Shown here piece by piece: positions 5,161-64,000 of a stretch of 64,000 nt of DNA. The position numbers were made by a program, and so were the translations under genes. Numbering within the stretch: the stretch's first letter is position 1; every line of letters starts with the position of its first letter. The DNA lies in contig NC_091285.1 in the NCBI RefSeq assembly GCF_032444005.1, positions 413,788,001 to 413,852,000 on the forward strand. Direction: 5' to 3'. This DNA is from Ranitomeya imitator (Eukaryota). Below the pieces are notes generated by a model that was not told the DNA's origin, did no database searches, and saw nothing but the letters and a program-made list of their open reading frames with translations.

Positions 5161-5166
5161 CTTTAA

Positions 5167-5977
5167 AGGGAACCTGTCACCCCGTTTTTTGAGATTGAGC
5201 TATAAATACTGTTAAATAGGGCCTGCGCTGTGTGTTCCTATAGTGTATGTAGTGTACCCCGATTCCCCATGTATGCTGAGAAATAACTTACCAAAGTCGC
5301 CGTTTTCGCCTGTCAATCAGGCTGGTCAGGTCGGGAGGGCGTGGTGACATCGCTGGTTCTTCCTCAGCTTTACGTTGGTGGCGTAGTGGCGTAGTGGTGA
5401 AGACACAGCGCGCGATCTGCGCTGTCATCCCTTTCGTCGGTGGGGGCGGCCATCTTCCTGGGGCCGCGCGTGCGCAGATCGAGTGCTCTGCTGCACGAGG
5501 CTTCAGGAAAATGGCCGCGGGATGCCGCGCGTGCGCATTAGAGATCGCGGCGGCCATTTTCCCAAAGCCGAGTTTGCATCTCGGCTTTGGGAAAATGGCC
5601 GCCGCGATCTCTAATGCGCACGCGCGGCATCCCGCGGCCATTTTCCTGAAGCCCCGTGCAGCAGAGCACTCGATCTGCGCACGCGCGGCCCCAGGAAGAT
5701 GGCCGCCCCCACCGACGAAAGGGATGACAGCGCAGATCGCGCGCTGTGTCTTCACCACTACGCCACCAACGTAAAGCTGAGGAAGAACCAGCGATGTCAC
5801 CACGCCCTCCCGACCTGACCAGCCTGATTGACAGGCGAAAACGGCGACTTTGGTAAGTTATTTCTCAGCATACATGGGGAATCGGGGTACACTACATACA
5901 CTATAGGAACACACAGCGCAGGCCCTATTTAACAGTATTTATAGCTCAATCTCAAAAAACGGGGTGACAGGTTCCCT
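5167..5977. mobile_element. T2/Kolobok-like MITE, near-perfect 811 bp palindrome, in the last IRF5 intron
   Basis: TTAA at 5163-5166 and 5978-5981. Termini AGGGAACCTGTCA / TGACAGGTTCCCT. Arms are complementary up to a short loop near 5572-5578; the left arm has one 8-bp duplication. Confidence 0.85.
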
Positions 5978-6278
5978 TTAAACAACCCAATGTTCATTTT
6001 TGGTTTTCTATAAGGAAGTTATATACATTCCTTGTCATGTGTATAAAGATTTTGTGATTAATTCATGTTTTTGAATACTACTGTATATTGGCAGCCCAAG
6101 CCCAAACAGAATGAGATCTGCTTGGGCTCATAAGGAGGGTTTTAACCAAAGCACTCTCTGACAACTTATGCCTTAACATGGTATTATCGGGTTGTCCTGG
6201 TGGGCGAGTCCATTTTTAAATAAATGTTGATTACTAACTATTTTACTTCATTTCATGATGTTTTCATTCATCTTGTAG

Positions 6279-9345: not shown

Positions 9346-10726
9346 ATGGAGGATCGTATGGAGCAGCAGCAAGAGCCCTTATCAGGTGATTCACCGGCTC
9401 ACCAACGTGCTAAGAATAGCCGCTCGAGTGGAAGGAGCGGCAATCGTCCTAGCCCGGACGTCACAGGACTCTTCAGCCTCCAGGAGGAATGTTCCCCGTG
9501 CTCCTAGTCCGCCTTGGAATCCGGCACCCTTTATGGTCAGCGGGCGGTGAGTGATCTACGTGAATGTCACTCTGGTGGTAATGGGCTACATTTTCTGTTA
9601 ACTTGGCAGGCGCCGAGGAAGGCTAGCTCCAAGTCTAAGAATAAGGAATGTGCCCTCTGTAGAGTTCCGTTGGCAGTCCAGTGGCAGAAGAGTCTTTGTA
9701 TAGATTGCATCCAAAAAACTATCCAGGAAGAGACCCCTGACATTGTCTCCCTGCTCCTCCTCCTCTAGGTCCTCTGGCTCCTCTTCAGATAGCGATGTTG
9801 GGGGCCGTCCGTGCTTTCTAACCGAGAACACGGACAAGCTAGTAAAAGCCGTCAGAGCTTCAATGGGCCTAAAATATGAAAAAGCGGCCAAATCCCTGGA
9901 GGACATTATGTTTGGGGGTCTAGAGGAAAAGAGAAAGCGTACCTTTCCAGTTAACCCCAAAGTAAAAGGCCTTATAGAAAAGGAATGGAGGAAGCCGGAG
10001 AAATCGGATAATCTACCCTTGGCTTCTAAAAGACGTTACCCCTTTGAGGAGAAAGATTCGGAGACTTGGGATAAGGTTCCAAAAATCGATGGTGCGGTAG
10101 CTATATCATCTAAAAAGTTATCCCTTCCCTTAGACTCTGGCGTGTTAAGGGATCCCTTAGACAAGAAAGCGGATGGATTCCTAAGACACACCTGGGAAGC
10201 GACCGCAGGGGGTTTAAAACTGGCAATCGCAGGGACCTGTGTCGTGCGTTCCCTTATTGTCTGGCTACAGCAGATAGAGGAGCAATTGAAATCTAAAGCT
10301 CCAAAGGATGAAATTTTAACTAATGTAACTATGGCTAAAGGAGCAGCAGCCTTTATAGCAGATTCTTCGGCAGACTCCGTAAGGCTGGCAGCTAGGGCAG
10401 CAAGTTTATCCAATGCGGCTAGACGTGCTCTCTGGTTGAAGAGGTGCCCGAGTGACTTACCTTCAAAGAATAGACTTTGTTCTATACCGTGTGATGGCCA
10501 TTTCCTCTTTGGTGAAAAATTATAAGACATTTTGGAGAAAGCAGGAGATAGGAAAAAGGGTTTTCCTCTCTTTCCAGTGGACTTTAGAAGACCTTATTTT
10601 CGGAGGGGCAAATTTAGTAGGGGCCGCACCCCGGGAGATAGAAGGAATTGGGACTCCAGAGACAGAAAGGGATCTGGATATATGTTTAAAGGTTCCTCGA
10701 CATCAGCGAAAAAGCCCTCCCAATGA
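9346..10726 (+). pseudogene. DIRS A gag (predicted exon 1 plus C2C2-finger exon), frameshifted
   Basis: CALCRVPLAVQWQKSLCIDC, then KLVKAVRASMG...RRALWLK...CSIPCDG. Internal TAA at 10523; natural stop TGA 10724-10726. Confidence 0.8.
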
Positions 10727-10732
10727 CGCCAG

Positions 10733-20430: not shown

Positions 20431-22544
20431 AGGCTGTTAACCGTAGACCCTTCACATGAGGGTGGTTGAAGGGGCCCTGGAAAAGAAGATCCTGATCCTC
20501 CGGGAGGATCCATGGGTCCGAGATTGACATGGCTCTGAGCCAGAAAAACCATGGCCTCTTGGGCCAGAACGGAGCTATTAAGATCACGTTTGCTCTGTCC
20601 TCCCTTATCTTCCTGATAACTGTTGGAAGTAGTATCAACGGGGGAAAGGCATAAGCTTTCTGGAATACCCATGGCACTTGTAGGACGTCGAAGATATCTG
20701 GATTGTCGGATCGGAACAATGAAGCGAACGTTTTGACTTGCCTGTTGTGTCTTGTTGCAAAAAGGTCTATCTCGGGAGTGCCCCATTTTTTTACTATCAT
20801 GAAAAAGATACGACGACTTACAACCCATTCTCCTTGGTGGAGGGTGTGGCGACTGAGGAAATCTGCCTTCGAATTGTCGATTCCTCTCACATGCAGTGCT
20901 GATAGGGATAGAAGGTGCTCCTCTGCTATGGCTAGAATGTTGTCGGCTATAGACATGAGAGCTTCTGATCTTGTTCCCCCTTGGTGGTTTATATATGCAA
21001 CTGCTGTCATGTTGTCTGAAAGGATTCTTGTATGCGTTCCGTGTAGCTGCAGAAGGAATTTAGATAAGGCATGATAGATAGCTTTCAGCTCTTTTTTATT
21101 AGAAGAATCATCCGATTCCCTAAGAGACCTCAGACCTTGCACTATTTGATCTCCTAAGTGTGCTCCCCAACCACTAGGACTGGCATCAGTGAAAATAGTT
21201 TTTGAAGGTTTAACCACCCAGGGAACCCCACTGGTAAAATTATTCGGATCTAACCACCAGGTGAGAGATTGTAACACGTCTGTTGGTAAAGAAACAAGAC
21301 TATCTAACCAGCCCTGTAATCTTTCTTCCTCCTGAAGTATTGTATACTGTAATTTTCTACTATAGAATTGGGCCCACGGAACAGCTGGAATACATGATGT
21401 GAAGGAACCAAGAGGAGACATACCTTCTCTTAGGGAAATTAGGGGGTTGTTAATCATCGATTGTACCTTGTTTATAATTGCTATTTGTTTAGACTTGGGA
21501 AGAATGCACCTTTGATTTATAGAATCAAGAATAAGTCCTAGAAATTTTTGATGGGTTGTGGGGGACAATCTAGATTTTTCCCAGTTTACTAACCACCCTA
21601 ATTCCTGTAGGGACGAAATTGAATCAAATGAACGTTGATGACATTGAGAAAGGGAGTTCCCCACTATCAAAAAGTCATCTAAATATGGTATTATGAGGGT
21701 GTCTTAACCTCAAATATAACATTACCTCTGACATTAGTTTTGTGAAGACTCTAGGGGCTATTGATAGTCCAAAGGGCATTGCTGTATATTGATAATGCCG
21801 TATTTGACCTTTCATCATAACTGCCACCCGTAGATATTGTTGATGCTCAATGAAGATTGGAAGATGGTAATATGCATCTTTAAGGTCAAGAACTGCCATG
21901 AAGCAATGGGGAAACAGAAGCTTAGTAGTTGACCGAATAGATTCCATTTTAAAAGTTTGGTTCTCTAAGAAGACGTTTAGTCTCCTAAGGTTAATTATTG
22001 TTCTAAATGATCCGTCTGGTTTCGAAATCAAAAATAAAGGGGAATAAAAACCCCTTCCTTTTTTACGAAAAGGGACTTCCACTAATACTCCTTTGGACAG
22101 GAGAGTTATTATTTCCTGCTGTAAGGCCTCTTGTTGTGATTGAGACCTTAAGTAAGTCAATAAAAATGAGTCTGGAGGGACTTGGGTAAATTTTAATTTC
22201 AGACCCGTAGTTATAAGGCTAGTTGCCCATGGATTAGAAGTTGACAGCCATTGTGTAGAGAAGGACAACCTACCACTAACGGGTAGATCTGTCCTAACGG
22301 GGTTTATCCTCAGGTTTGAAAGGGCGTTTTCCGAAAAAAGCTCCTTTTTGTTTAAAGTCTTTATTAGCCCAACGGTCCTGGTTTTTATAGTCTCGTCTTC
22401 TGTTAAACATGGGCTTTCGGAACGCTCTCCTATAGGATGGAAGATAAGTGTTATTGGGGAACCCCTTCTTCCTCTCACCCGCTTTGGTAACAATTTCATC
22501 CAACTTAGTACCAAATAGGTACTCACCCTGGCATGGCAGACCAC
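20408..22544 (-). pseudogene. DIRS C RT / RNase H / MT, one frameshift near 21675
   Basis: ORFs 21675-22544 (FYSPLF, LDLKDAYYH, PFGLSIAPRVF) and 20408-21670 (FTDAS, ELKA, SDN, IDLFA, YAFPP). Confidence 0.9.
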
Positions 22545-23467: not shown

Positions 23468-26368
23468 TTAGGGAGGGACCACAGCCTGCAGAACCCTTCT
23501 CCCGAAGGTTAGGTCAGACGAAGAGGCTAGGTCTAAGCGGTAGTGTCTGAAGAAGGTTGAAGGTGATGACCAGGTGGCCGCCTTACAGATCTGATCTAAT
23601 GGTACCTCTGACCTTTCGGCCCAGGAGGTCGCCATAGCCCTTGTAGAATGTGTCTTCAGTCCTTGCGGAATGGCGTTCCCGGAGGATGAGTACGCCAAAG
23701 CTATTGCGTCTGTGACCCATCGAGCTATAGTGCCCTTAGAGGCTTTGAGTCCTTTCCTGGGTCCCTGGAAGCAGATAAAAAGAGACCCTTCCTTCCTATA
23801 CTGCTGGGTGATTTTTATGTATTGGACCAGGCACCTTTTAACGTCTAGTGTATTGAATTTCTCTTCCTTCTTATTTTTAGGGTTTTGACAGAAAGAAGGA
23901 AGGATTATCTCTTGGGATCTATGGAATGTTGACGCAACTTTCGGTAGATAGGAAGGGTCTGTTTTTAATATAACTTTATCATCCAGAATTTGTGTAAATG
24001 GAGGGTTAACGGACAGGGCTTGGAGGTCACTTATCCTACGGGCCGAAGTCAGGGCTATTAGGAGGGCCGTTTTAAGAGAAAGAATTTTAAGGGGTACCGA
24101 TTCTATGGACTCAAACGGGGAGTCTGTTAAGGCTGACAGAACTAAGTTCAGATCCCAGGTTGGTAATCTACTTATAGTTAGCGGTTTAGACCTTGCGGCT
24201 GCTCTGATAAACCGTATAACCCAAGGGTTGGCTGCTATGTTCTCACAGTATAAAGCTCCTAGAGCTGCTATCTGTACCTTTAAGGTACTTACCGAAAGGC
24301 CTAAGTCCTTCTGTAGAAATTCTAGTATTTCAGATACTGGAACACCATCTTGCAATTTTACCCCAGAGGAGGACAAAATTTTTTTCCATGTTTTGCCGTA
24401 TATTTTTGTGGTCACAGGTTTTCTACTTTTCATTAGTGTAGACACTAGCTTGTCAGAAAACCCTCTTTCCCTCAATAGTGACCTCTCAAAAGCCACGCTG
24501 TCAGATGGAGATTTTCTGATTGAGGGTGGAACACCGGTCCCTGAGACAAGAGGTCCGGAAGATCCGGAAGCACCCAAGGATCGGTGATTGATAACATCCT
24601 CAGCCATGAAAACCAGGCTCTCTTGGGCCAGAAGGGGGCTATCAAGATGAGTCTGGATTTGTCCTGTCTGATCTTTCTCAGAACTGCTGGAATGAGAATA
24701 GTAGGGGGAAATGCATACATTAGGGTCTGTGTCCAGGGTATTGTGAATGCATCCACAGCCTGAGGATTCCCCCTGGGATCTAGGGAACAGAAAGTTTCCA
24801 CTTTCTTGTTGTGCATATTGGCAAAGAGGTCTATTACAGGGATCCCCCATAGATCTGTGATTTTGTTGAATATGCCCTGATTTAGAGACCACTCCCCCTG
24901 CTTTAGTAGGGTACGACTCAGAAAGTCCGCTTTTTGGTTTTCCACCCCCTTTATATGTAGGGCTGATAGGGACAGGAAGTTGTTTTGTACCAGGCTGAAA
25001 ATTTCGGAGGTAGTTTCCATTAGTGATTGAGACCTGGTTCCCCCCTGGTGGTTTAAGTAAGCTACTACTACTTTGTTGTCCGAGAATACTCGGACATGAT
25101 GGCCTTGTAGTTGGTCTAGGAAGTACAGTAGTGCATGATTCACGGCTCTCAACTCTTTTTGATTTGAGGAAGATCTGAGCTCCTGATTTGTCCATATCCC
25201 CTGAGTGACTCTGTCGTCTAGGTGAGCCCCCCACCCTGTGGGACTTGCGTCTGTGGTAACTATCTGAGACCCCTCTATTACCCAGGGAATCCCTTTTGAT
25301 AAGTTGTTGGGATTCAGCCACCAGCCTAGGGAATGAATAGTGGGTAAACTTAGAGTCATTCGACTTTCTAACCGTCCTCCCAGTATTTTTTGGTTGCTTA
25401 AAATATCCCACTGAAGTGTCCTTGTGTGGAGCTGTGCCCACTGAACGGCTGGGAGACAGGCAGAGAGGGACCCCAGTAATGACATTGCCTTTCTTAGAGT
25501 CATGGTAGGGTTTGCACGCGCTTGTGACACTAGGCGGATTATGTTTTGTTTTTTCTTGTCTGGTAGGTAACAAACCTGAGAACTTGAGTCCAAGGTGAGA
25601 CCCAAGAATTCTTGAACCTTGGTTGGTTCCAGTTTTGATTTTTTGAGGTTCACCAGCCATCCCAATTTTGTTAGGGTGTCTATGACTCTGTCGCATTGTT
25701 GACGGCAGAGTTCGGCCGAGTTGCTCACAATCAGAAAATCGTCTAGATATGGAATAATCAAGACGTCTTCCTCTCTCAGATGTGCCATCATCTCCGCTAT
25801 CAACTTTGTGAAGATGCGGGGAGCAATTGATATGCCAAAGGGAAGAGCCCTGTATTGGTATTCCCTGGTCTGTCCTTTTATGACTACTGCCAGTCTGAGG
25901 AATTTCTGAGAGGTCTTGTGGATGGGGACGTGATAATATGCGTCGCTGAGATCTAGAACTATCATAAAACAGTTGGGAAACAGATTTTTTATCGTTGATT
26001 TTATTGACTCCATTTTGAATCTGTAGTTTTTTACATAGGTATTCAACTTCCGTAAGTTTATTATAGTTCGGAAGGTTCCGTCCGGTTTGGGAACCAGGAA
26101 CAATGGAGAGTAGAATCCCTTCCCTCTTTCCAGAGGGGGGACTTCTTGGATGACAGACTTGTTTACTAGTTTTACAATTTCTAGTTCCAGAGCTTCTTGT
26201 TGATGAGGAGATGATCTCAGCGGTGTTATCACATAATTCCGTGGGGGTAGGGATAGAAATTCTATGCGAAGCCCTTCTCCTATTAATTTCAATATCCAAG
26301 GGCTGGTCGAAATTTTCTCCCAGGCCGGGAGGAATTGAGTCAATCTCCCTCCCACCCTGGGGAAGACG
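23468..26368 (-). CDS. DIRS D long ORF with C-terminal tyrosine recombinase; N-terminal about 630 codons overlap RT
   Basis: Open from the TGA at 26371-26369 to 23468. SARRISDL, KTHSTRAMATSWA and TWSSPSTFFRHY give an R/HxxR/W/Y catalytic set. Confidence 0.9.
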   Translation of the reverse strand, partial: RLPQGGREIDSIPPGLGENFDQPLDIEINRRRASHRISIPTPTELCDNTAEIISSSTRSSGTRNCKTSKQVCHPRSPPSGKREGILLSIVPGSQTGRNLPNYNKLTEVEYLCKKLQIQNGVNKINDKKSVSQLFYDSSRSQRRILSRPHPQDLSEIPQTGSSHKRTDQGIPIQGSSLWHINCSPHLHKVDSGDDGTSERGRRLDYSISRRFSDCEQLGRTLPSTMRQSHRHPNKIGMAGEPQKIKTGTNQGSRILGSHLGLKFSGLLPTRQEKTKHNPPSVTSACKPYHDSKKGNVITGVPLCLSPSRSVGTAPHKDTSVGYFKQPKNTGRTVRKSNDSKFTHYSFPRLVAESQQLIKRDSLGNRGVSDSYHRRKSHRVGGSPRRQSHSGDMDKSGAQIFLKSKRVESRESCTTVLPRPTTRPSCPSILGQQSSSSLLKPPGGNQVSITNGNYLRNFQPGTKQLPVPISPTYKGGGKPKSGLSESYPTKAGGVVSKSGHIQQNHRSMGDPCNRPLCQYAQQESGNFLFPRSQGESSGCGCIHNTLDTDPNVCISPYYSHSSSSEKDQTGQIQTHLDSPLLAQESLVFMAEDVINHRSLGASGSSGPLVSGTGVPPSIRKSPSDSVAFERSLLRERGFSDKLVSTLMKSRKPVTTKIYGKTWKKILSSSGVKLQDGVPVSEILEFLQKDLGLSVSTLKVQIAALGALYCENIAANPWVIRFIRAAARSKPLTISRLPTWDLNLVLSALTDSPFESIESVPLKILSLKTALLIALTSARRISDLQALSVNPPFTQILDDKVILKTDPSYLPKVASTFHRSQEIILPSFCQNPKNKKEEKFNTLDVKRCLVQYIKITQQYRKEGSLFICFQGPRKGLKASKGTIARWVTDAIALAYSSSGNAIPQGLKTHSTRAMATSWAERSEVPLDQICKAATWSSPSTFFRHYRLDLASSSDLTFGRRVLQAVVPP
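24472..26355 (-). CDS. DIRS D RT / RNase H / methyltransferase-like polyprotein (627 aa, no ATG before the RT core)
   Basis: Uninterrupted ORF with LDLSDAYYH, PFG, YLDD, TTDAS, ELRA, SDN, IDLFA, YAFPP. Confidence 0.93.
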   Translation of the reverse strand: MGGRLTQFLPAWEKISTSPWILKLIGEGLRIEFLSLPPRNYVITPLRSSPHQQEALELEIVKLVNKSVIQEVPPLERGKGFYSPLFLVPKPDGTFRTIINLRKLNTYVKNYRFKMESIKSTIKNLFPNCFMIVLDLSDAYYHVPIHKTSQKFLRLAVVIKGQTREYQYRALPFGISIAPRIFTKLIAEMMAHLREEDVLIIPYLDDFLIVSNSAELCRQQCDRVIDTLTKLGWLVNLKKSKLEPTKVQEFLGLTLDSSSQVCYLPDKKKQNIIRLVSQARANPTMTLRKAMSLLGSLSACLPAVQWAQLHTRTLQWDILSNQKILGGRLESRMTLSLPTIHSLGWWLNPNNLSKGIPWVIEGSQIVTTDASPTGWGAHLDDRVTQGIWTNQELRSSSNQKELRAVNHALLYFLDQLQGHHVRVFSDNKVVVAYLNHQGGTRSQSLMETTSEIFSLVQNNFLSLSALHIKGVENQKADFLSRTLLKQGEWSLNQGIFNKITDLWGIPVIDLFANMHNKKVETFCSLDPRGNPQAVDAFTIPWTQTLMYAFPPTILIPAVLRKIRQDKSRLILIAPFWPKRAWFSWLRMLSITDPWVLPDLPDLLSQGPVFHPQSENLHLTAWLLRGHY

Positions 26369-27614
26369 TCACTTGGGGGGGGGGGGGGGGGGTTCTATCT
26401 CGAGGGGAGTTACCAAAAAGGAAACCTCTGTCTTTCCTTCTCCCGTCATCCCATCGGTTTTGCTCCCTCGGTGGTCTCCTTCTAAAAAATTTTCTGTTCC
26501 GAAAGGGCCGTTTATTATATGTTGGGGCCAGGATGGGAAAACCTTTCTTTTTATCACCTGCTTTTTGCAGGATATCGTCCAAAGTCTCTCCAAAGAGGAA
26601 TTTACCTTCACAGGGGATAGAACACAGTTTGTGTTTAGTTTGTAAATCCCCCGGCCAGCTTTTTAACCATAGGGTTCTACGTGCCGCATTTGAGAGAGCT
26701 GCCGATTTAGATGTTAATTTAATGGAGTCGGCCGAAGAGTCTGCCAAGAATGCTGCGGCTCCTCTAATCATAGGGATGGAGTCTAAAATTTTATTCCTAG
26801 GGACCCCATCTCTAATCTGTTTCTCTAAGTTGTCGACCCAAATCATTAAGGAACGCGACGTACATGCCGCTGCTATAGTTGGCCTTAAGCATCCTCCGGC
26901 TGACTCCCAGGCCCCTTTAAGAAAGGTATCTGCTCTTTTGTCAAGGGGGTCTTTCAAGGTTCCCATATCCTCGAATGGTAATGCGAACTTTTTCGAGGCC
27001 TTAGCTACCGCAACATCGAGTTTGGGGGCTTTATCCCACGAAACCGAAGCTTCTTCTTCAAAGGGGTATTTCCTTTTAATAGAGGGAACCGATGCATTTT
27101 TTCTCTCAGGTTTCTCCCACTCCTTCTTAATTAACGTTTGAATATTTTCATTAAGAGGAAATACCTTACGCTTTTTTTGGGAAAGACCACCAAACATAAT
27201 GTCTTGTACCGTTTTATCAGGACGAGGATCTAACACCCCCATCGTCGATCTTACAGCCTTTACAAGGCCGTCAACCTCATCTAGGGGGAAGCAATGACGA
27301 CCCCCACTTTCACTGTCTGAAGAGGAGGGGGATGAATCTTGCGTATCCGAATTTTTACTCTCGGAGCTAGAAGAGTCGGAATTTCTATCAGGAGCTGATT
27401 TCTTAGTAGATCTCCTGTCGCTTTTAAGGGAGTTAAACACCGTCTCAACCTCCGCTTTAATTACAGAGCGTAACTCAGAGGCGAAGTTCGGGGTCTCCTC
27501 ACAGAGGACTCGCTCAATACAGGAGTCGCATAATTTCTTCTCCCAGGACTGTGGTAATGCTTTCTCACATAAGGGGCATGTTCTATTTTTCATCTTCCCC
27601 GTTCTCTTCCTTGC
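26340..27614 (-). CDS. DIRS D gag main exon (C2C2 zinc finger at N-terminus)
   Basis: 417-aa ORF with CPLC-x12-CDSC. Preceded by a TAG acceptor (AG at 27616-27615). An 18-G run at 26375-26392 shifts the last codons. Confidence 0.85.
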   Translation of the reverse strand, partial: ARKRTGKMKNRTCPLCEKALPQSWEKKLCDSCIERVLCEETPNFASELRSVIKAEVETVFNSLKSDRRSTKKSAPDRNSDSSSSESKNSDTQDSSPSSSDSESGGRHCFPLDEVDGLVKAVRSTMGVLDPRPDKTVQDIMFGGLSQKKRKVFPLNENIQTLIKKEWEKPERKNASVPSIKRKYPFEEEASVSWDKAPKLDVAVAKASKKFALPFEDMGTLKDPLDKRADTFLKGAWESAGGCLRPTIAAACTSRSLMIWVDNLEKQIRDGVPRNKILDSIPMIRGAAAFLADSSADSIKLTSKSAALSNAARRTLWLKSWPGDLQTKHKLCSIPCEGKFLFGETLDDILQKAGDKKKGFPILAPTYNKRPFRNRKFFRRRPPREQNRWDDGRRKDRGFLFGNSPRDRTPPPPPQVTSSPGWEGD

Positions 27615-39589: not shown

Positions 39590-39639
39590 CTGAGTAAAAT
39601 GAGCAGAAAATCAGAAAATGCACTCTATATTCACACACC

Positions 39640-40263
39640 CAACAGACGCTCCCCCAAACAGACTCTCCCACAATTTTCCAACAGGCGCTCCCCCAAACAG
39701 ACGCTCCCACAATTTTCCAACAGACGCTCCCCCAAACAGACTCTCCCACAATTTTCCAACAGACGCTCCCCCAAACAGACGCTCCCACAATTTTCCAACA
39801 GACGCTCCCCCAAACAGACGCTCCCACAATTTTCCAACAGACGCTCCCAGCAGACGCTCCCCCCAAATCTCCAACAGACGCTCCCCCCAACTCTCCAACA
39901 GACGCTCCCCCCAACTCTCCAACAGACGCTCCCCCCAACTCTCCAACAGATGCTCCCCCAACTCTCCAACAAACGCTCCCCCCAACTCTCCAACAGACGC
40001 TCCCCCAACTCTCCAACAGACGCTCCCCCCAACTCTCCAACAGACGCTCCCCCAACTCTCCAACAGACGCTCCCCCCAACTCTCCAACAGACGCTCCCCC
40101 AATTCTCCAAGACGCTCCCCCAACTCTCCAACAGACGCTCCCCACAACAGACGCTCCCCACAACAGACGCTCCCCACAACAGACGCTCCCCACAACAGAC
40201 GCTCCCCACAACAGACGCTCCCCACAACTCTCCAACAGACGCTCCCCCCAACAGACGCTCCCA
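39640..40263 (+). repeat. Compound minisatellite with core CAACAGACGCTCCCC
   Basis: Blocks of about 39-bp, 24-26-bp and 16-bp units, all built on the same core. Confidence 0.95.
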
Positions 40264-40590
40264 CTTTCCTTAAAACCATAAGCAAACAATCACAATATAG
40301 CCAATGATCAGAACTGACAGCGGATTTTGTGTCAGGGGTCTTGAATGTTTTGTACTGGTGAGACAGGATGCCAATACCCCTTTAAGACTACACCCAAAAT
40401 ATTTCTGTGCAGATGCTCTTGACCATGAAAATTACTTTTTTCCTTTGATATCACACTTTTGACCTCTACATAGAACACTCTGAATATTAGTAAAAAGTTT
40501 GCTAGTTGCATACAAATCATTCAATCATTTCATCTGAATTACATATGAGAAAGCAAGCCAATCATAAATATATAGGACAGAATTTCTCAC

Positions 40591-41572: not shown

Positions 41573-42309
41573 TAATGGTCCTATGGCACTGCAGCGGCAT
41601 CTACGATTTCTTCACTTTTTACCAAGCACTGCTCTGTAGATTTTGAGCTGTAATATCAGGCACAGACACCACAAAATTAAGTGTTGTGCTTGGTGAAAGG
41701 GGAAAAACTCAGACCTCGCTGAAGTGACAACCTGACGCAGAACTCCAGTGGCCGATCAATCAGCCGAATAGTGGGGTTGCCAGAAGTAGGATCCCAGAGA
41801 TCCAATGTCAATGGCATCCATAGAACAGGACATCAATATCAAGTCCAAGAAATAGGGATTTTTGTGTGTACTCACCGTAAAATCCTTTTCTCCGAGCCAC
41901 TCATTGGGGGACACAGGACCATGGGTTATGCTGCTGTCACTAGGAGGCTGACACTAAGCTGAGACAAAAAAGGGTTAGCTCCTCCCCTGCAGTATACACC
42001 CTCATGCTGGCATGCAGAGACCCAGTTAAGTGCAAAAGCAGTAGGATAATGAGAACAATATATCAAAAAACATTGGAACATAACATGTCAAACAACAGTC
42101 AAAGACTAAAAAAGATAACTAGCCGTAAGGCTACCAGGGTGGGTGCTGTGTCCCCCAATGAGTGGCTCGGAGAAAAGGATTTTACGGTGAGTACACACAA
42201 AAATCCCTATTTCTCCTTCGCCTCATTGGGGGACACAGGACCATGGGACGTCCCAAAGCAGTCCCTGGGAGGGAAACAATACAACCACGTAACTTCATGT
42301 ACCATCTGA

Positions 42310-45234
42310 CTACCAATGCGCAACGGCCGCCTGCAGGATACGCCTGCCAAGGGCCGCGTCCGCAGAGGATTGGATATGCACATTGTAATGCTTTGTGAAG
42401 GTATGCAGGCTGGACCACGTTGCGGCCTTGCAAACCTGCTCCGCTGATGCCTGGTGCCGGATGGCCCAGGAAGCACCCATCGACCGAGTGGAGTGAGCTC
42501 TAATCCCCGCCGGGATAGGACTGCCCCTGACCCGATAGGATTCCTGGATAGCAGATCGGATCCATCTAGCTATCGTGGATTTAGACGCCGCCAAACCCTT
42601 TCTGTGACCCTCCAGGAGCACGAAAAGGGCGTCCGATTTTCTGAAGTGTGCCGTCCTGGAAATGTACCTCCTGAGAGCCCGTACCACGTCCAGAGTATGG
42701 AGAGCCTTCTCGACCCTATGTTTAGGCTGCGGACAAAAGGAGGGAAGGATGATGTCCTCGTTAAGGTGGAAAGAGGAGACCACCTTTGGAAGAAACGCGG
42801 GAGAAGGACGTAGGACTACCTTGTCCTGATGAAAGGCAAGGAAAGGTGCCCGACAGGATAGAGCGGCGAGCTCTGAAACCCTTCTGATGGACGTCACCGC
42901 TACCAGGAAGGCAACCTTCCAAGAGAGAACAGAGAGCGGAACGTCTTGAAGGGGTTCGAACGGCGGTTCCTGGAGAGCCCCCAGGACCAAATTGAGATCC
43001 CAGGTCTCCAAAGGCATCCTGTAAGGAGGAACAACATGGGAGACTCCCTGAATGAAAGTCTTGACCTGAAGGTTGGTGGCGATCCTACGCTGGAACAGCA
43101 CGGATAAGGCTGAGATCTGACCTTTAAGAGAGCTCAGGGCCAAACCGGAATCCAGACCGGACTGAAGGAAATTCAGGATACAAGGGATGGAGAAGCTGAG
43201 CGGAGGGAGCCCTCGGAGCCTGCACCAAGAAAAGAAGGTCTTCCAGACGCGGTGGTAGATAGAGGCAGAGGACGCCTTGCGAGCACTTAGCATGGTAGGA
43301 ATGACCTGCTGAGAGAAACCAGCACGAGCTAGAATCCAGGTTTCAACAGCCACGCCGTCAAACGTAGGGCCCCTGAGCTCTGATGGTAGATCGGTCCTTG
43401 GCGAAGTAGGTCTGGGCGGTCTGGCAACCGCAAGGGGACGTCGGCTACGAGCTGAACGAGCTCCGCGTACCAAGCGCGACGAGGCCAGTCTGGGGCGACC
43501 AGAATGACCGGTCCTCCCTCCGTCCTGATCTTTCGGATGACCTTCGGCAGTAAGGGAAGAGGAGGAAACACGTATGGGAGTTGAAAATGATGCCACGGAG
43601 AAATTAGCGCGTCCACTCCAATGGCCTGGGGATCCCGAGATCGAGCGATGAAGTTGTGGACCTTGGCGTTCCATCTGGATGCCATCAGATCCACGTCCGG
43701 GGTCCCCCAGCGAAGACAGATCTGGTGAAAAACTTCTGGGTGAAGTTCCCATTCCCCCGAGGCAAGGCCCTGGCGGCTCAGGGAGTCCGCTGCCCAGTTC
43801 TCGACTCCCGGAATGTGCACCGCCGAGATGATGGAGTGGTTGGTCTCGGCCCAACGAAGGATGAGAGAGACTTCCCTCATCGCCGCCCTGCTGCGGGTAC
43901 CCCCCTGGTGGTTGATGTAAGCCACCGCCGTGACGTTGTCCGATTGGACTCTTATTGGGTGACCCGCAAGCAGAGCGTGGAAGTGAATCAGAGCAAGTCT
44001 GATAGCACGAATCTCCAGAATGTTGATGGGGAGGCTGGATTCCCGAGCAGTCCAACGACCCTGGGCCGAGTGGTGAAGAAACACCGCCCCCCAGCCAAGA
44101 AGACTGGCGTCGGTGGTTACCACTAACCAGCGGAACGGGAGGAAGGACTTCCCCTGGAGAAGAGATGGTCCCAGGGTCCACCAAATGAGAGAATGTCTGA
44201 CCCGAGGAGACAGGGGACAAGGGAGGTCGAGAGAAAAGAGACTCCTGTCCCAGTTGTCCAGCAGAGCCTGTTGTAAGGGGCGGAGATGGAGTTGAGCGAA
44301 GGGAACAGCTTCGATTGCCGCAACCATCTTTCCCAGGATCTTCATGGCGAACCGAATGGTTCGCGGGCGAGGATGGCAGAGTGTACGGACTCCCTGCTGG
44401 AGCGCTTGGACCTTGGACCGAGGAAGCAAAACCAGCCCCCTTGAAGTGTCCAGGATCATTCCCAGAAAGGAGATCCGACGGGAAGGAACGGGAGATGACT
44501 TGTCTAAGTTGATCAGCCAGCCCAGGCGAGAAAGCGAATCCAGGGAAATGTGGACGCTTGACTCGCAGGCCTGAAACGACGGGCCCTTTATGAGGAGATC
44601 GTCTAAGTAAGGTAATACGACGACTCCTCGAGAGTGAAGAATGGCCATGACAGCCGCCATGACCTTGGTGAACACCCTGGGCGCCGTGGCGAGACCGAAG
44701 GGCAAGGCTGTGAACTGAAAATGGTCCTCTCGAATGGCAAAGCGAAGGAACCTCTGATGAGGCGGGAAGATCGGGATGTGAAGATAGGCATCCTTGATGT
44801 CTATCGAGGCCAAAAATTCCCCTCTTTCCATGGAGGAGATGACTGATCTGAGCGATTCCATCCTGAAGTGCCGGACTCTCACGCACCTGTTCAGAAGCTT
44901 CAGATCCAAAATGGGACGAACGGTCCCGTCCTTCTTTGGCACGACGAAGAGGTTTGAGTAGAAGCCTCTGAACCTCTCGTGTTCCGGGACCGGCACGATG
45001 ACCCCGCTCTGGCGGAGGGAGTGGATGGCGCAAAGAAGGGCGCGAGACTGAGCTCCCGAACTGGGAAGACGAGAGGGGAAGAACCGAGTGGGAGGGGGAG
45101 AGGAGAACTCTATCTTGTAGCCAGACGATACCAGATCTCTGACCCATTCGTCGTGAACGACGGAGAGCCAGGCTTGTTGAAAAAGGAGTAGACGACCGCC
45201 TACTCTTCTGGGATCGACTGGCGCTGTTCCCGAG
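42310..45234 (-). CDS. DIRS E long ORF with C-terminal tyrosine recombinase (first ATG 45147)
   Basis: Open from the gag TGA; SIRRVSELAAL, RAHSTRSMGASWA, TWSSLHTFTKHY. Confidence 0.92.
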   Translation of the reverse strand, partial: LGNSASRSQKSRRSSTPFSTSLALRRSRRMGQRSGIVWLQDRVLLSPSHSVLPLSSSQFGSSVSRPSLRHPLPPPERGHRAGPGTREVQRLLLKPLRRAKEGRDRSSHFGSEASEQVRESPALQDGIAQISHLLHGKRGIFGLDRHQGCLSSHPDLPASSEVPSLCHSRGPFSVHSLALRSRHGAQGVHQGHGGCHGHSSLSRSRRITLLRRSPHKGPVVSGLRVKRPHFPGFAFSPGLADQLRQVISRSFPSDLLSGNDPGHFKGAGFASSVQGPSAPAGSPYTLPSSPANHSVRHEDPGKDGCGNRSCSLRSTPSPPLTTGSAGQLGQESLFSRPPLSPVSSGQTFSHLVDPGTISSPGEVLPPVPLVSGNHRRQSSWLGGGVSSPLGPGSLDCSGIQPPHQHSGDSCYQTCSDSLPRSACGSPNKSPIGQRHGGGLHQPPGGYPQQGGDEGSLSHPSLGRDQPLHHLGGAHSGSRELGSGLPEPPGPCLGGMGTSPRSFSPDLSSLGDPGRGSDGIQMERQGPQLHRSISGSPGHWSGRANFSVASFSTPIRVSSSSLTAEGHPKDQDGGRTGHSGRPRLASSRLVRGARSARSRRPLAVARPPRPTSPRTDLPSELRGPTFDGVAVETWILARAGFSQQVIPTMLSARKASSASIYHRVWKTFFSWCRLRGLPPLSFSIPCILNFLQSGLDSGLALSSLKGQISALSVLFQRRIATNLQVKTFIQGVSHVVPPYRMPLETWDLNLVLGALQEPPFEPLQDVPLSVLSWKVAFLVAVTSIRRVSELAALSCRAPFLAFHQDKVVLRPSPAFLPKVVSSFHLNEDIILPSFCPQPKHRVEKALHTLDVVRALRRYISRTAHFRKSDALFVLLEGHRKGLAASKSTIARWIRSAIQESYRVRGSPIPAGIRAHSTRSMGASWAIRHQASAEQVCKAATWSSLHTFTKHYNVHIQSSADAALGRRILQAAVAHW

Positions 45235-45551
45235 TCATTGAGAAGGGAATCTGGGAGGTCTGGAACCTCTGGTTCGGGGCTGCCTCGGTTTCCCGCGCCA
45301 GGAGGGATTAGGTCTGAAGGATGGACGAACGTCTCTGTCTGCGCGGGCGGAGCGGTCCGATCTGGGAAGGCCAGAGGGATTGGACCAGGCAGAGTTGGTA
45401 CGAAAAGGCCGAAAACGAAAGTAAGGCTGGCGCTGGAAAGCCGCCTTGGGCCTCTGTTGGGGAAGAAACTTGCTCTTTCCCCCTGTGGCGTCGGAAATAA
45501 GCTGGTCAAGCTTTTCGCCGAAAAGACGCCCGCTTTGAAAAGGGAGAGAAA
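43329..45551 (-). CDS. DIRS E RT / RNase H / MT frame (translation start uncertain)
   Basis: Uninterrupted; IDIKDAYLH, PFG, YLDD, TTDAS, EIRA, SDN, VDLMAS, YVFPP. Confidence 0.92.
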   Translation of the reverse strand, partial: FLSLFKAGVFSAKSLTSLFPTPQGERASFFPNRGPRRLSSASLTFVFGLFVPTLPGPIPLAFPDRTAPPAQTETFVHPSDLIPPGAGNRGSPEPEVPDLPDSLLNDSGTAPVDPRRVGGRLLLFQQAWLSVVHDEWVRDLVSSGYKIEFSSPPPTRFFPSRLPSSGAQSRALLCAIHSLRQSGVIVPVPEHERFRGFYSNLFVVPKKDGTVRPILDLKLLNRCVRVRHFRMESLRSVISSMERGEFLASIDIKDAYLHIPIFPPHQRFLRFAIREDHFQFTALPFGLATAPRVFTKVMAAVMAILHSRGVVVLPYLDDLLIKGPSFQACESSVHISLDSLSRLGWLINLDKSSPVPSRRISFLGMILDTSRGLVLLPRSKVQALQQGVRTLCHPRPRTIRFAMKILGKMVAAIEAVPFAQLHLRPLQQALLDNWDRSLFSLDLPCPLSPRVRHSLIWWTLGPSLLQGKSFLPFRWLVVTTDASLLGWGAVFLHHSAQGRWTARESSLPINILEIRAIRLALIHFHALLAGHPIRVQSDNVTAVAYINHQGGTRSRAAMREVSLILRWAETNHSIISAVHIPGVENWAADSLSRQGLASGEWELHPEVFHQICLRWGTPDVDLMASRWNAKVHNFIARSRDPQAIGVDALISPWHHFQLPYVFPPLPLLPKVIRKIRTEGGPVILVAPDWPRRAWYAELVQLVADVPLRLPDRPDLLRQGPIYHQSSGALRLTAWLLKPGF

Positions 45552-46713
45552 TCAGGGATTTTTTAGAGGAAGAGTCTGCGCGCCAATCTCTGAGCCAAAG
45601 GGCCCTTCTAATAGCGATGGCGTTGGAAGCCGCCGAAGCAGCGCAATTTGCCGCGTCGAGAGATGCGAACATAACATAATCGCTGGCCATGGCTAGCTGC
45701 TTAGCCAGGTCCGCCATCTCCGAGGGGAGGTCCTGCTCATTAATGGATTTCGCTAGGGCATCCGCCCAGGAAACCATAGCCTTGGACACCCAGGCCGCGG
45801 CGAAGGAGGGAGACAGGGACGAGCCAGAGGCTTCGTACACCGAGCGAGCTAGAGAGTCTATCTGGCGTTCGGTGGGACTCTTAATTGAAGCGCCCTCCGG
45901 GACTGAAAGAAGAGTCTTAGAAGCCAGGCGCGAGACCGGCGGATCTACCGTGGGGGGATCCGTCCAGTCTTTCACGAGATCAGCTGAGAAGGGATACTTG
46001 GAAACCAAGACCTTCTTACCCGTGAAGCGCTTGTCTGGGTGTTCCCTGTGACGCCTGACTATGTCCAGGAAGGCTGGATGAGAGGCAAAAGCTTTGTGAG
46101 AACGCTTGGTTCTGGAAAAGGAGACCGCATGTTCCGGAGCGGAATTAGAATCGTCATCCACCTTTAGTGCGTGATTGACTGCTACGATGAGGGAGTCAAC
46201 CGTGGCTCTGAACTCCGGAGCCTCCGGATCCAAAGAAATTTCAGACTCATGTTCAGAGTCCTGAACGCTTCGAGCCCCCAAAGAGGGTGAGCGAGAGGTG
46301 GAGCTGCCAGAGTCTGAGTGACGAGGAGAACGCTCCGGAGAGGTAGTACGGGTCCGTTTTCTGGACGACCGTGCCTCTTTAAGAGGCGAGCGGCCCCTGC
46401 TGGCCGACGATTCCCCTGCTATGGAGGGATCCCTTAGCACCTGTAGCGGATTGCCCCGTTCCCCGGGAGGATTTTGAATGGACTTGATGGCGTTAGCTAA
46501 AAAATCCACGGACTGAGAAAGCGAGGCGACCCACGGGGGGGGGCTAGGTACTCCAGGGTCGGCGGCGGTGGAGGGCTCCTGGGCACACGGGGCATCGCAG
46601 GCAGAGCAGAGGGGAGAGCTTTGAGGCCTGGGAAGAGGGGCCTGGCAGGTGGTACACGCAGAAAAGAAGGTTGTATGCACCTTAGAAGATTTTTTAGACC
46701 TTGACTGCGACAT
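45235..46713 (-). CDS. DIRS E gag (492 aa)
   Basis: ATG start; CTTC-x12-CSAC finger; RRALWLRDW motif shared with the other gags. Confidence 0.9.
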   Translation of the reverse strand: MSQSRSKKSSKVHTTFFSACTTCQAPLPRPQSSPLCSACDAPCAQEPSTAADPGVPSPPPWVASLSQSVDFLANAIKSIQNPPGERGNPLQVLRDPSIAGESSASRGRSPLKEARSSRKRTRTTSPERSPRHSDSGSSTSRSPSLGARSVQDSEHESEISLDPEAPEFRATVDSLIVAVNHALKVDDDSNSAPEHAVSFSRTKRSHKAFASHPAFLDIVRRHREHPDKRFTGKKVLVSKYPFSADLVKDWTDPPTVDPPVSRLASKTLLSVPEGASIKSPTERQIDSLARSVYEASGSSLSPSFAAAWVSKAMVSWADALAKSINEQDLPSEMADLAKQLAMASDYVMFASLDAANCAASAASNAIAIRRALWLRDWRADSSSKKSLISLPFQSGRLFGEKLDQLISDATGGKSKFLPQQRPKAAFQRQPYFRFRPFRTNSAWSNPSGLPRSDRSARADRDVRPSFRPNPSWRGKPRQPRTRGSRPPRFPSQ

Positions 46714-48553
46714 GATGCTAATGCAGACAAAATTACAGGGTCTATATAGAGGTGACCAGTGACTGAGAGGGCGCTGCAGAGGGGAGCTAACGATGTCTCC
46801 TTACCCCGGTCCTGTGTCCCGCTATCCAGGAGAGACGAACTGCTGGGGTGTTCACTCTGAGAGGAGGAAGCCGGCTGCACGTGGGCCACTGACGCGCCAG
46901 AGATGCGACAGGCAGGAGCTGCGGCGCTGAGGAGAGGGACCAAGATGGCCGCCGAGATCAGGAAGAGAAATCTCGGCGGCTGTGAGAAGCGCCAGGAGCG
47001 GGGGGCGGCGCCACAGACACTGGCTGGAGTGGGCGGAGCTTAGCGGCGGCGACCAGCGGCTAGGCCGAAGCCGGGGACTAAATTTGCGGCCTCGGCCCGG
47101 CGCGCGGTCGCGAGCGCCGGAAAGGGACAGGGACCGCCCAAAAAGCCTGCAGATGGAGCCCAGGGATGAGGAGCCCTCCTGACCGCCGGCGACACCCCCC
47201 CCCCAGTCCCCCCACCGGGCACTTACCCTGAAGATGGAGGTGAGAGGGAACCATGGTGCCATATATAGGAACGGTGCAGGGGTTGGGAAGCCTTCTATCC
47301 ACCTACCCCACATGGGGGGTGGAGAGGAACCGTCCACCACCTGAGTCACAAGTCACATTGGTGATGCAGTGTGGTCTGCACGGACGCCACTGGGATAAAG
47401 CCACTGTACAGCCGAGGGTAGAACCTGGTGGACAGGGCAGATGTCCGGCAATAAAAAGGCCTGGCTGCAGAGGAGGATACTGGAGGTAGGAACACCAGTG
47501 CTCGTCTGTATAAGGGGAGATCGGGGCCCATTAGGGGAGAAACCGTCGCCCAAAAAAAGGACAGCTCAGGCAGTGGCTCCCACGTCGCAGGAGAGGATAC
47601 GGTGAGGTGAAACTCCCGTGCTCGCCTGTTGTTGGTTCGGGGGAGATCGGACCTTAGAAGAATCCGTCGCCCCCTTCGACCGGAATAGATGAAAAAAGAG
47701 AGAAAAAATCAGTGTGCCTCCTACGGACACTAAGCTTAAACTGGGTCTCTGCATGCCAGCATGAGGGTGTATACTGCAGGGGAGGAGCTAACCCTTTTTT
47801 GTCTCAGCTTAGTGTCAGCCTCCTAGTGACAGCAGCATAACCCATGGTCCTGTGTCCCCCAATGAGGCGAAGGAGAAAGTCCCTTTAAAGGATTTAACTA
47901 CTTTGGGATCTCACACTTTGACTTATAAGTGGACCCACTGGCCTACGAAAAGCCAGGCCAAACGTTTGTTTTGTGGGATCCTGGCATGCAAAGTGGGATC
48001 CTATTAAATGTTGCTTTATGCACTAAGTCAGCGGTTAAATAAATGGTCAGCCCCAGTCTAGTGATAGGTACTGTTTAAATCTCTAAAATAAATGTTAAAA
48101 AAATAATTGGCGAACAACTGGACTTAAATGGAGTCACATGAAAAAAAAGTTATGTTAAATCTAACCGTTACAATTTGCTCAGCATAATGTGTTGTTTAGT
48201 GGTGCTTATTAGTCGTCAGGATGCAAAATGGATAGTACACGGACCATTGGTCAGTGTATTTAAAAAATTAAAAATACTAGCCGTATTAGTTTTTGGAATT
48301 AGACTTTTTAATAAAATTCAACAAGTGTGTTACCAAAATAACTATATTATGCAGATATTATCTGTGTGGCAACCATTGTTTTTACAGGCACATTGCTATT
48401 ATTAACATACATAACTACATTTTGGACTTTTATTATATTTTGAATCCTTGATATATAAAGCAGATGACAAACAGACGACATACAGATGGCAAGATGGATG
48501 AAAAATGGACGATTTTTTTTTTTTTATACACTCGTGAACTTATATCACCTCAC

Positions 48554-51171: not shown

Positions 51172-51980
51172 AAATCTATCAGTAATTAAAAAGCAATCCT
51201 GACACCTAAAGGTACCGTCACACTAGACGATATCGCTAGCGATCCGTGACATTGCAGCGTCCTCGCTAGCGATATCGTCCAGTGTGACAGGCAGCAGTGA
51301 TCAGGCCCCTGCTGTGCTGTCGCTGGTCGGGGAAGAAAGTCCAGAACTTTATTTGGTCGCTGGACTCCCCGCAGACATCGCTGAATCGGCGTGTGTGACA
51401 CCGATTCAGCGATGTCTTCACTGGTAACCAGGGTAAACATCGGGTAACTAAGCGCAGGGCCGCGCTTAGTAACCCGATGTTTACCCTGGTTACCATCCTA
51501 AAAGTAAAAAAAAACAAACACTACATACTTACCTACCGCTGTCTGTCCTCCAGCGCTGTGCTCTGCACTCCTCCTGCTCTGGCTGTGAGCGTCGGTCAGC
51601 CGGAAAGCAGAGCGGTGACGTCACTGCTCTGCTTTCCGGCCGCTGTGCTCACAGCCAGAGCAGGAGGAGTGCAGAGCACAGCGCTGGAGGACAGACGGCT
51701 GTAGGTAAGTATGTAGTGTTTGTTTTTTTTTACTTTTAGGATGGTAACCAGGGTAAACATCGGGTTACTAAGCGCGGCCCTGCGCTTAGTTACCCGATGT
51801 TTACCCTGGTTACCAGCATCATTGGTCGCTGGAGAGCTGTCTGTGTGACAGCTCTCCAGCGACCAAACAGCGACGCTGCAGCGATCCGGATCGTTGTCGG
51901 TATCGCTGCAGCGTCGCTAAGTGTGACGGTACCTTAAGAGAAAAATATCAGTTCAACTGATAGCCTATAAAAAGAGGTCT
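51172..51980 (+). mobile_element. Short Tc1 fragment split by a MITE
   Basis: CAGCTGAAATCTATCAGTAATTAAAAAGCAATCCTGACACCTAA|GAGAAAAATATC matches 59221-59305 once the MITE is removed. Confidence 0.65.
51210..51934. mobile_element. PIF/Harbinger-like MITE with a 400 bp internal palindrome
   Basis: TIR AGGTACCGTCACAC / GTGTGACGGTACCT; TAA TSD; inverted arms across 51421-51815. Confidence 0.9.
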
Positions 51981-55870: not shown

Positions 55871-56133
55871 TAGTGATGAGTGAGTATTTGTTAGTTCTCG
55901 GAGATTTCGTTTTTGTCAACGCAGCTGCATGATTTACAGACACTAGACAGCCTGAATACATGTGAGGATTCCCTAGCAACCAGGCAACCCCCACATGTAC
56001 TCAGGCTGGCTAGCAGCTGTAATTCATGCAGCTGCGTCAACAAAAAATAAATCTCCGAGCAGTTACAAATACTTGGAGACCACCCGAACATGCTCAGGAA
56101 AACCCGAGCAAAAAGTACACTCGCTTATCACTA
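55871..56133. mobile_element. hAT-like MITE
   Basis: TIR TAGTGATGAGTGAG / CTCGCTTATCACTA; TSD TTGTCTAC / ATGTCTAC. Confidence 0.75.
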
Positions 56134-60103: not shown

Positions 60104-60483
60104 GGCCTCTTTCACACTTGCGTCGGTACGGGTCCGTCACTATGCGTCGGGCCGACACAGGTTGTGAAATTTGTGCACGACGTGGGCAGCAGATGCAGTT
60201 TTTCAACGCGTCAACTGCCTATTCTGAAGTCCGGGGAGGAGGGTGCGGAGTTTCGGCCGCACATGCGCAGTAGAAAATGGCGGACGCGACGGACAAAAAA
60301 ACGTTACATTGAACTTTTTTTGTGATGACGGTCTGCCAAAACACGACGGATCCGTCACACGACGGACGCGACGTGTAGCCATCCGTTGCTAATACAAGTC
60401 TATGGGGAAAAAAACGCATCCTGCGGACACATTTACAGGATCGGATACGGATTGCGATGGATGCCAAACGACGCAAGTGTAAA
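60104..60483. mobile_element. Harbinger-like MITE whose right TIR is interrupted by DIRS F
   Basis: Left TIR GGCCTCTTTCACACTTGCGTCG. The right TIR reads CGACGCAAGTGT-AAA and then switches to DIRS sequence. Confidence 0.75.
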
Positions 60484-63400: not shown

Positions 63401-64000
63401 TACCCCGGATCTAAGGAGGGAAACAATGGCTGTAAAGAAACCCGGGACTAGAGCGGGGTCTCTTGGAGGTTGGGATTCGAAGAAAACGATCCCAGGGCCG
63501 TGAAATGAAGATTTTGTATCTAGAAGATACAAGTGCCCTGGCCCATGCGTCCTCTACTGAGGAAACCCAGACGTCCCTGAGGAACAGGAGAAACGGGCTA
63601 GAGTCTAGTCGTGGGTCATGCCTAGGTGGAACTTCCAGTCCTGGACCTGGAGAATCCACCTTAGGAGTAGCGGGAACGCCAGGAAGGAGTGAATCGAAGA
63701 ATACCTTCTCTTCTTAACGTGCCTGTGGCCTCTGTTGCGAAAAGGAATCTGATGCCGCGAAACGACGCAAAAAAAGGCAGAAAAGGACCGAAGTTGCCGC
63801 CTAAGAGAACTGGTGCCGCCAGTGGTGTCCTTAATAATTTGGTCCAGCTTGGAACCGAAAAGCCGTGATCCTTGAAAAAGCCAGGCTCGTAAGGGACTTC
63901 TTTGATGACTCTTGAGCCAAACAGAACGACGGCTGGCAACAACATTACCGGGTGTCTGAGCGGCAGAAGACGCGACGTCCAGAGAACAAATTATTCCCCG
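60481..64000 (-). mobile_element. DIRS1-like retrotransposon F (decayed, continues past the window end)
   Basis: Right end and ITR about 60485-60655, ICR about 60840-60945. YR remnants 60983-61990 (KAHSTRAVGAS), RT/RH remnants to about 63600, gag 3' end beyond. Confidence 0.9.

Follow-up and report, generated by a model that had tools for sequence, protein, structure and literature searches.

Relatives of a DIRS1-like retrotransposon in Ranitomeya imitator point to a leaky gag stop ahead of the recombinase frame

Element E is a young multi-copy DIRS1-like retrotransposon, ordinary in structure, within a 64,000-nucleotide (nt) stretch of the Ranitomeya imitator genome (contig NC_091285.1, positions 413,788,001 to 413,852,000), hereafter the window. 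Its gag open reading frame (ORF) ends CAA TGA CTC, with the stop at 45237, and the same frame then stays open for 974 codons (45234-42310) to the end of the tyrosine recombinase (YR). As the first-pass annotation of the window had proposed, 492 + 1 + 974 residues would thus make a protein of 1467 amino acids (aa). Comparison with relatives indicates that the junction is a conserved leaky stop, and the combination of an in-frame open overlap with a particular stop context is far beyond chance. In the explanation we favour, translation would mostly stop at the end of gag and yield Gag alone (492 aa in E). A small share of ribosomes would continue past the stop through the 974-codon frame, producing a Gag-linker-recombinase fusion of 1467 aa, and another small share would slip +1 within the gag tail, producing a fusion of Gag with the reverse transcriptase (RT). 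We regard it as probable that readthrough itself makes Gag-YR; for the explanation as a whole, a programmed leaky gag stop in long-overlap DIRS1-like elements together with the shift into RT, our confidence is a little lower but still favourable. The overlap of about 630 codons would be kept open only because ribosomes must cross it to reach YR. As no protease domain was found, the fusions may escape cleavage and carry RT and YR alike to the Gag-RNA complex, which we propose only tentatively.

The copies of E are young, 40 of 40 scored genome matches being 98-100% identical, and its closest named RT relatives come from dendrobatid frogs (94% identity). Its inverted terminal repeats (ITRs; 47739-47866 and 41900-42027, 128 nt each) are 100% complementary, and the internal complementary region (ICR) near the 3' end (42142-42214) pairs with 41848-41920. 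On the minus strand, the gag frame (46800-45235) runs for 521 codons from stop to stop, 492 of them from the first ATG at 46713, matches PF11560 (E 4.8e-15) and closes with TCT CAA TGA CTC. In the frame behind it, ORF3, the first ~627 codons are S/G/P/R-rich and overlap RT; the recombinase starts at 43353 and shows its catalytic motifs (R at 42885, HSTR at 42495, KHY at 42393), with a PF00589 match (E 2.8e-5) under the curated cut-off. The RT frame matches PF00078 and PF17917 (the latter under its curated cut-off), and its earliest Met is residue 231, within the RT domain. No Pfam match to a methyltransferase was obtained in E, where FPP and PDW motifs are visible, and the relatives P0074 and P0120 carry PF05869 (methyltransferase). 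A Pfam scan of the three E ORFs (E 0.01) found neither an aspartic protease nor a DDE integrase. The ORF3 frame of the overlap has no stop, against a mean of 22.2 and a minimum of 9 in 1000 synonymous shuffles of the RT codons.

Relatives were collected from the frog's own genome (6.0 Gb) by DNA, protein and Pfam searches, and from metagenome contigs, where the best 80 of 494 RT matches were taken. We examined 213 loci anchored on the VGGRL motif of RT (141 own genome, 72 metagenome); a further eight metagenome loci had either no anchor or no stop upstream, and three distant RT matches in viral contigs were left out. Of these, 87 combined an RT frame open for 600-720 codons with a long ORF upstream, and grouping them at 80% RT identity left 58 clusters, 17 from the frog and 41 from metagenomes. 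Cluster representatives were picked by hand, and stop identity played no part in the definition of types. E is represented in this set by L266 (95% identical), E itself being analysed apart. Type A, with gag, one stop and an ORF3 open across the whole RT, comprises 43 clusters (8 frog, 35 metagenome). The stop lies in the RT frame in type B (overlap closed, 2 clusters) and in type B2 (overlap open from upstream, 3 clusters, where indels in single copies are possible). In type C (3 clusters) gag is at -1 to RT and the overlap is closed; the remaining seven clusters are broken copies without a type. A long in-frame ORF stands right behind a single gag stop in 48 of the 51 typed clusters. The first-pass annotation had conceded that its idea would fail if intact relatives often had other stops or an out-of-frame YR; gag, stop and YR are in frame in 43 of these 51.

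Two layouts stand somewhat apart. In L198/L199, L205 and L239, whose gag stop is in frame with RT, ORF3 is already open 12-72 codons before that stop. This may be a mirror image of the main layout, with RT reached by readthrough and YR by a -1 shift, or these may be indel copies. In L200 (1446-6323) gag and ORF3 form a single ORF of 1626 codons with no stop between them, either a natural Gag-YR fusion or an indel copy.

Tabulation of the stop and its +4 base, which had been suggested earlier, gave TGA in 35 of the 43 type A clusters, TAG in 8 and TAA in none. TGA-C makes up 22 of these gag stops as opposed to 2 of 40 RT ends (p 2e-6) and 0 of 31 YR ends (p 3e-7); among third-frame stops it accounts for 160 of 1941. 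In the same elements TAA closes 7 of 40 RT frames and 11 of 31 YR frames. The pattern persists when each 50%-identity cluster contributes a single element (TGA 21, TAG 6, TAA 0; TGA-C 14/27), and stop contexts are scattered across the tree (a quick tree with SH-aLRT support only). Of the 43 last sense codons, 8 are CAA (0.8 expected) and 6 are TCC (1.5 expected). The overlap frame has no stop in any of the 43 clusters, compared with 11-37 expected per element. No ATG is conserved for RT or ORF3 across these clusters, and in 14 of them the first ORF3-frame ATG lies at least 100 codons past the stop, a distance in which up to 17 stops would be expected. An open frame without an early ATG argues that ribosomes enter ORF3 from upstream and not at an ATG. 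The relatives thereby lend support to the earlier suggestion that the recombinase would be the readthrough partner. Reinitiation at the ATG within CAATGA was considered and rejected, since that ATG sits in the closed third frame.

Elements that have changed the register of gag and RT serve as natural experiments. Type C is one frog clade (support 99; L116, L117, L118 and a family with a 403-codon gag) with 20-33 stops in the overlap and gag stops reading TGA-T, TAG-G, TAA-C or a double TAA-TAG/TAA; it has lost the open overlap and the TGA-C context together. In frog type B the overlap holds 27-33 stops, and two families, 61-62% identical, both read CAA TGA CTA G (L247 and L248; L119 and L285-L289), L246 having CTG G after the TGA. 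These are young multi-copy families in which gag-TGA-CTAG-RT forms one frame; the 631-codon RT frame expected of type B appears in 46 of 150 matches listed (counted by eye). They constitute a clean candidate for Gag-Pol readthrough in a vertebrate transposon. An unrelated metagenome lineage also places the stop in the RT frame and continues TGA CAA CTA, CAA TCA or CAG CTA (L180, L217 and L170, respectively); in these three, gag-TGA-CARYYA-RT is in frame and ORF3 is open for its last 800 codons only. UGA_CUAG and CARYYA are tested readthrough motifs (PMC4132726; here and below, PMC numbers refer to the accessible part of each paper). That a DIRS gag stop stands in a textbook readthrough context where RT depends on it supports, by inference, readthrough to YR in type A.

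The same families bear on why TGAC is kept. The first-pass annotation had offered an Asp codon in the RT frame or a branch point as other causes. The Asp-codon idea was rejected: the distance from the stop to VGGRL varies from 13 to 295 nt, TGA-C is retained even where the stop is in the RT frame itself, and in those families no second frame constrains the bases, so that it cannot explain them. The branch-point idea proved weak, and is taken up with splicing below.

Readthrough alone leaves RT in need of a route of its own. In type A the RT frame is +1 to gag, and 15 of the 43 clusters have no ATG in it up to ten codons past VGGRL. Past the gag stop it contains no stop in 717 linker codons, compared with 9.6 expected and 27 in the third frame, and it is open for 23-157 codons upstream of the gag stop. 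Inside this open stretch, gag-frame UUU_CGN, a +1 shift motif used by influenza PA-X and amalgaviruses (PMC5052127), occurs in 8 of 8 frog clusters (3.6 expected) and 12 of 35 metagenome clusters (5.6 expected). Phe-Arg is coded UUU_CGN in 23 of 36 pairs in the overlap as against 50 of 148 elsewhere (p 0.001). The motif is absent from all 11 elements whose gag ends TCC, CCC or TTT, whereas the remaining 32 include 20 that have it (p 0.0003, in part owing to one clade). This contrast suggests that the alternative route is an antizyme-like shift at the stop; in reporters, UGA_C increases readthrough as well as +1 shifting (PMC9841425). A family fetched later, L290, fits the prediction, with TGA-C, an open overlap and CCC TTT CGG. 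For E, which has three such sites, a +1 frameshift in the gag tail is a credible route to RT in our evenly balanced judgement, and we give the same even weighting to the general form, in which UUU_CGN would be the shift site in some lineages and a TCC/CCC/TTT-stop site in others.

Several observations weigh against this account. Nearly half of the type A stops, 21 of 43, are not TGA-C (TGA-G 7, TAG-G 6, TGA-T 4, TGA-A 2, TAG-C 2), and in E the TGA is followed by CTC, a weaker context than CTA. Since ORF3 continues the frame of gag, ribosomes entering anywhere just past the stop would give an equally open frame. The joint loss in type C is confined to a single clade and therefore counts as one event. 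As the metagenome loci were retrieved by means of RT relatives of E, they are biased to long-overlap elements; about half of 28 DIRS1-like elements have no long overlap (PMC3266345). The upstream openness of the RT frame is what gag composition predicts (median 90 vs 84 codons, p 0.13). Both the UUU_CGN and the P-site patterns are post hoc, 12 of 43 clusters have neither UUU_CGN nor a TCC/CCC/TTT end, and in frogs alone the Phe-Arg contrast is not significant (11/17 vs 8/21, p 0.19). One type B family keeps TTT CGC at -39, where a shift would be useless; type C RT is still +1, yet its Phe-Arg is mostly TTC AGG, and the model therefore leaves its RT route unexplained. The gag-UGA-pol junction of Tca2 gave no readthrough in a yeast reporter (PMC2194720). 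Folding adds little: mean z is -1.1 just past the stop, -1.0 just before it and about -0.3 far inside RT; 16 of 200 shuffles fold as well as E (z -1.55); and 12 frog sequences share five consensus pairs with one compensatory change. Folding the region 3' of the stop, as had been proposed, thus yielded a shallow dip and a weak signal for a conserved 3' hairpin, which establishes no stem or pseudoknot as a stimulator.

Among the rival explanations, we think it unlikely, but worth weighing, that spliced messages skip the gag stop to make YR, and perhaps RT, with TGAC as a branch point or part of a splice signal. In a scan with rough splice-site matrices, closed-overlap families of this genome show an acceptor-like site at +1239 to +1251 from VGGRL, in a phase that suits a phase-1 gag donor, and E-clade elements have a strong acceptor-like site at +1050. 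In four C-type families and the L119 group, and in types B and C generally except for the L247 family, the former comes after the final overlap stop; in the L247 family the +1251 site leads straight into stops. The tract itself, pyrimidines followed by CAG, lies in RNase H in L116, L117, L118 and L096/L284 (+1239 to +1248) and in type B (+1251). In types B and C, ORF3 is open past about +1330 (0-1 stops vs 6-12 expected), and YR may there be made as a spliced Gag fusion; -1 slippery heptamers as its entry were rejected, none being conserved in the closed-overlap families. For type A, if splicing took out most of pol, there would be no need for the overlap to be open over its first 350-400 codons, yet it is. 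Acceptor-like AGs just past the stop occur in 21 of 43, compared with about 15 expected (14.7 in control stretches), in mixed phases (14/8/8). No donor-like site within 200 nt of the E stop exceeds 3.1 bits, and the best one comes after the stop. Contigs from public runs, weak evidence since the runs are RNA only by guess, span the E junction (44934-45436) with 0 differences and no splice. Four such contig sets covered E, and of their 24 joints the 15 listed all lie away from the E junction, too weak a result to settle splicing.

It is less likely again that the weak stop is kept mainly for a stop-dependent, antizyme-like +1 shift into RT, with ORF3 entered otherwise just downstream, by reinitiation, at an ATG close to the stop or through a -1 shift out of the RT frame. 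The last codons fit it (TCC in 6 of 6 Ser, CCC in 4 of 4 Pro), as do the RT frame open from the gag stop onward, the effect of UGA_C on +1 shifting (PMC9841425) and an ORF3 ATG within 100 codons in 29 of 43 clusters, mostly at +32 or +56. The +32 and +56 ATGs, however, derive from RT Trp codons and persist in closed-overlap families ahead of stops, and 14 of 43 clusters have no early ORF3 ATG. Moreover, the overlap-losing clade dropped TGA-C while its RT remained +1, and where the gag stop is in frame with RT, and no shift is needed, the context is retained or sharpened. We give only a slight chance to an internal promoter in the gag tail, from whose shorter RNA RT and ORF3 would start at a non-AUG or variable AUG codon, the stop bias being inherited or compositional. 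The Tca2 junction does have a minor promoter (PMC2194720), and 28 of 43 clusters have an RT-frame ATG upstream of or near VGGRL; but such ATGs are at unconserved places (-447 to +18) and absent in 15 of 43 and in E, and the stop bias survives 50% clustering and is absent from the other stops of the same elements.

The leaky-stop explanation can be drawn out further, though we would put this broader form below an even chance. One unspliced RNA would yield three proteins through a pair of recoding events, both within the final 250 nt of gag, and the double-coded 630-codon bridge would be purely a path for ribosomes. A change of register would then allow a lineage to use its leaky stop for RT and to obtain YR by splicing instead, apparently in at least three lineages. 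The first-pass annotation had missed this switch of partner to RT, the clade that dropped both signals and RT's need of its own route.

The other elements in the window fall on both sides of the pattern. As annotated, element A has CAA TGA CGC at 10724, in frame with YR; the copy is decayed, and in its closest family (L113, 71% RT identity) the frame is open for 968 codons. The TGA CGT of element D at 26371 was likewise borne out: the gag of this copy is out of register at a C run, sister copies (e.g. L048, L052 and L056) have 412-413 gag codons leading directly into the TGAC stop, and TGAC stands at the junction in 29 of 30 loci of the family. Element F does carry TGA CCC at the homologous site (63618), but in a decayed family whose evidential weight is small; it is uninformative because one short broken RT frame is common to all 12 loci (F plus 11 relatives). 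These loci (F at 60481-64000, the relatives within L131-L145) are 97-98% identical, and the family is likely non-autonomous and spread after decay. Element C was correctly set apart, with TAG G and 14 overlap-frame stops inside 180 codons; its closest group is the closed-overlap frog clade (62-70% identity).

Table 1 Coordinates of element E and of the gag junctions of the other DIRS1-like elements in the window
Feature	Position	Strand	Remarks
Element E, DIRS1-like	41848..47866	-	ITRs, ICR, genome copies
E gag ORF	45235..46713	-	492 aa from first ATG (46713); LAP2alpha-like domain, basic tail
E gag stop CAA TGA C, candidate readthrough site	45234..45240	-	TGAC in 30/30 E-family loci
E ORF3	42310..45234	-	974 codons, gag frame
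E RT-RNase H(-methyltransferase) ORF	43329..45551	-	+1 to gag; VGGRL at 45203
E candidate +1 shift sites, three gag-frame UUU_CGN (45420, 45414, 45405)	45400..45420	-	RT frame already open there
E possible hairpins 3' of gag stop, weak support	45135..45231	-	folding z -1.55
Element A junction CAA TGA C	10721..10727	+	decayed copy, open-overlap family
Element C junction CGT TAG G	22293..22299	-	closed-overlap type
Element D junction AAG TGA C	26368..26374	-	ORF3 open 966 codons
Element F junction GCA TGA C	63615..63621	-	decayed family

The window holds six DIRS1-like elements; six or more DIRS elements of different families occupy 8791-31565 and 41848-64000, B, C and D being among those that abut, and the cluster is possibly an insertion hot spot. 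Elsewhere in the window there are a tandem array of 16-39-nt units based on CAACAGACGCTCCC (39600-40280) and long, near-perfect inverted repeats at 5159-5985, 51421-51816 and 55883-56073, foldbacks resembling miniature inverted-repeat transposable elements. Loci from the PF00589 search were mostly other YR elements and were dropped, none of the 15 fetched anchoring on the RT query; L146-L160 carry YR ORFs of 320-340 codons followed by a 200-codon ORF, the two parted by single stops in some (e.g. L151 and L155), in a Ngaro-like layout. A phage-integrase match of 139 bits on a small contig of the genome (G000:C111:31716-32207), far above all others, probably reflects bacterial DNA within the assembly.

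Amphibians, fish and many other eukaryotes harbour DIRS elements in abundance, with 2-kb overlapping frames that lack start codons. A leaky stop in the recombinase frame would explain why the overlap is retained and would predict the sizes of all three proteins. It would also bring to light a large collection of natural readthrough and +1 frameshift signals, along with an instance of a readthrough partner that switched between two enzymes during evolution.

E does not differ in structure from described DIRS1-like elements, Xenopus families included: ITRs, ICR, LAP2alpha-like gag, RT-RNase H, the long pol/YR overlap and a catalytic YR in the non-overlapping 3' end are all shared (PMC9210276, PMC3266345). 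What is new here is a reading of how frames without a start are reached. The accessible portions of PMC7192593, PMC9210276, PMC3266345, PMC6681497, PMC3783388 and PMC5633606 describe the overlap without a translation mechanism, and supplement 3 of PMC3266345 gives no gag or YR ORF ends. Our literature search found no report of gag readthrough or frameshifting in DIRS elements; key older DIRS work was outside its reach, and a prior mention is possible.

Gammaretroviruses read through gag-UAG-pol, and the resemblance to the junctions described here lies in one stop before an in-frame enzyme ORF, TAG-G being the gag stop context in 6 of 43 type A clusters. Tca2, with gag-UGA-pol (PMC2194720), is alike in the same respect, and the families with the stop in the RT frame share this gag-stop-pol layout outright. 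The main layout differs from both: its in-frame partner is the recombinase, reached across ~630 codons that code for RT in another frame, with no pseudoknot shown and no protease. The exact UGA_CUAG and CARYYA motifs (PMC4132726) are found at the gag stop of the stop-in-RT-frame families; the main layout cannot use TGA CTA G, because a stop would fall in the RT frame, and its elements have TGA followed by CTA T/C, CTC, CTG or CGC. For the putative shift into RT, PA-X and the amalgaviruses (PMC5052127) offer the closest likeness, with a motif in the ORF1 frame inside the overlap and a +1 ORF2 coding for a polymerase, and the antizyme UCC_UGA sequence (PMC9841425) is identical to five gag stops here. 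Unlike the sites of PA-X and the amalgaviruses, the candidates described here lie in a retrotransposon, beside a second putative recoding event, and in 20 of 43 clusters only.

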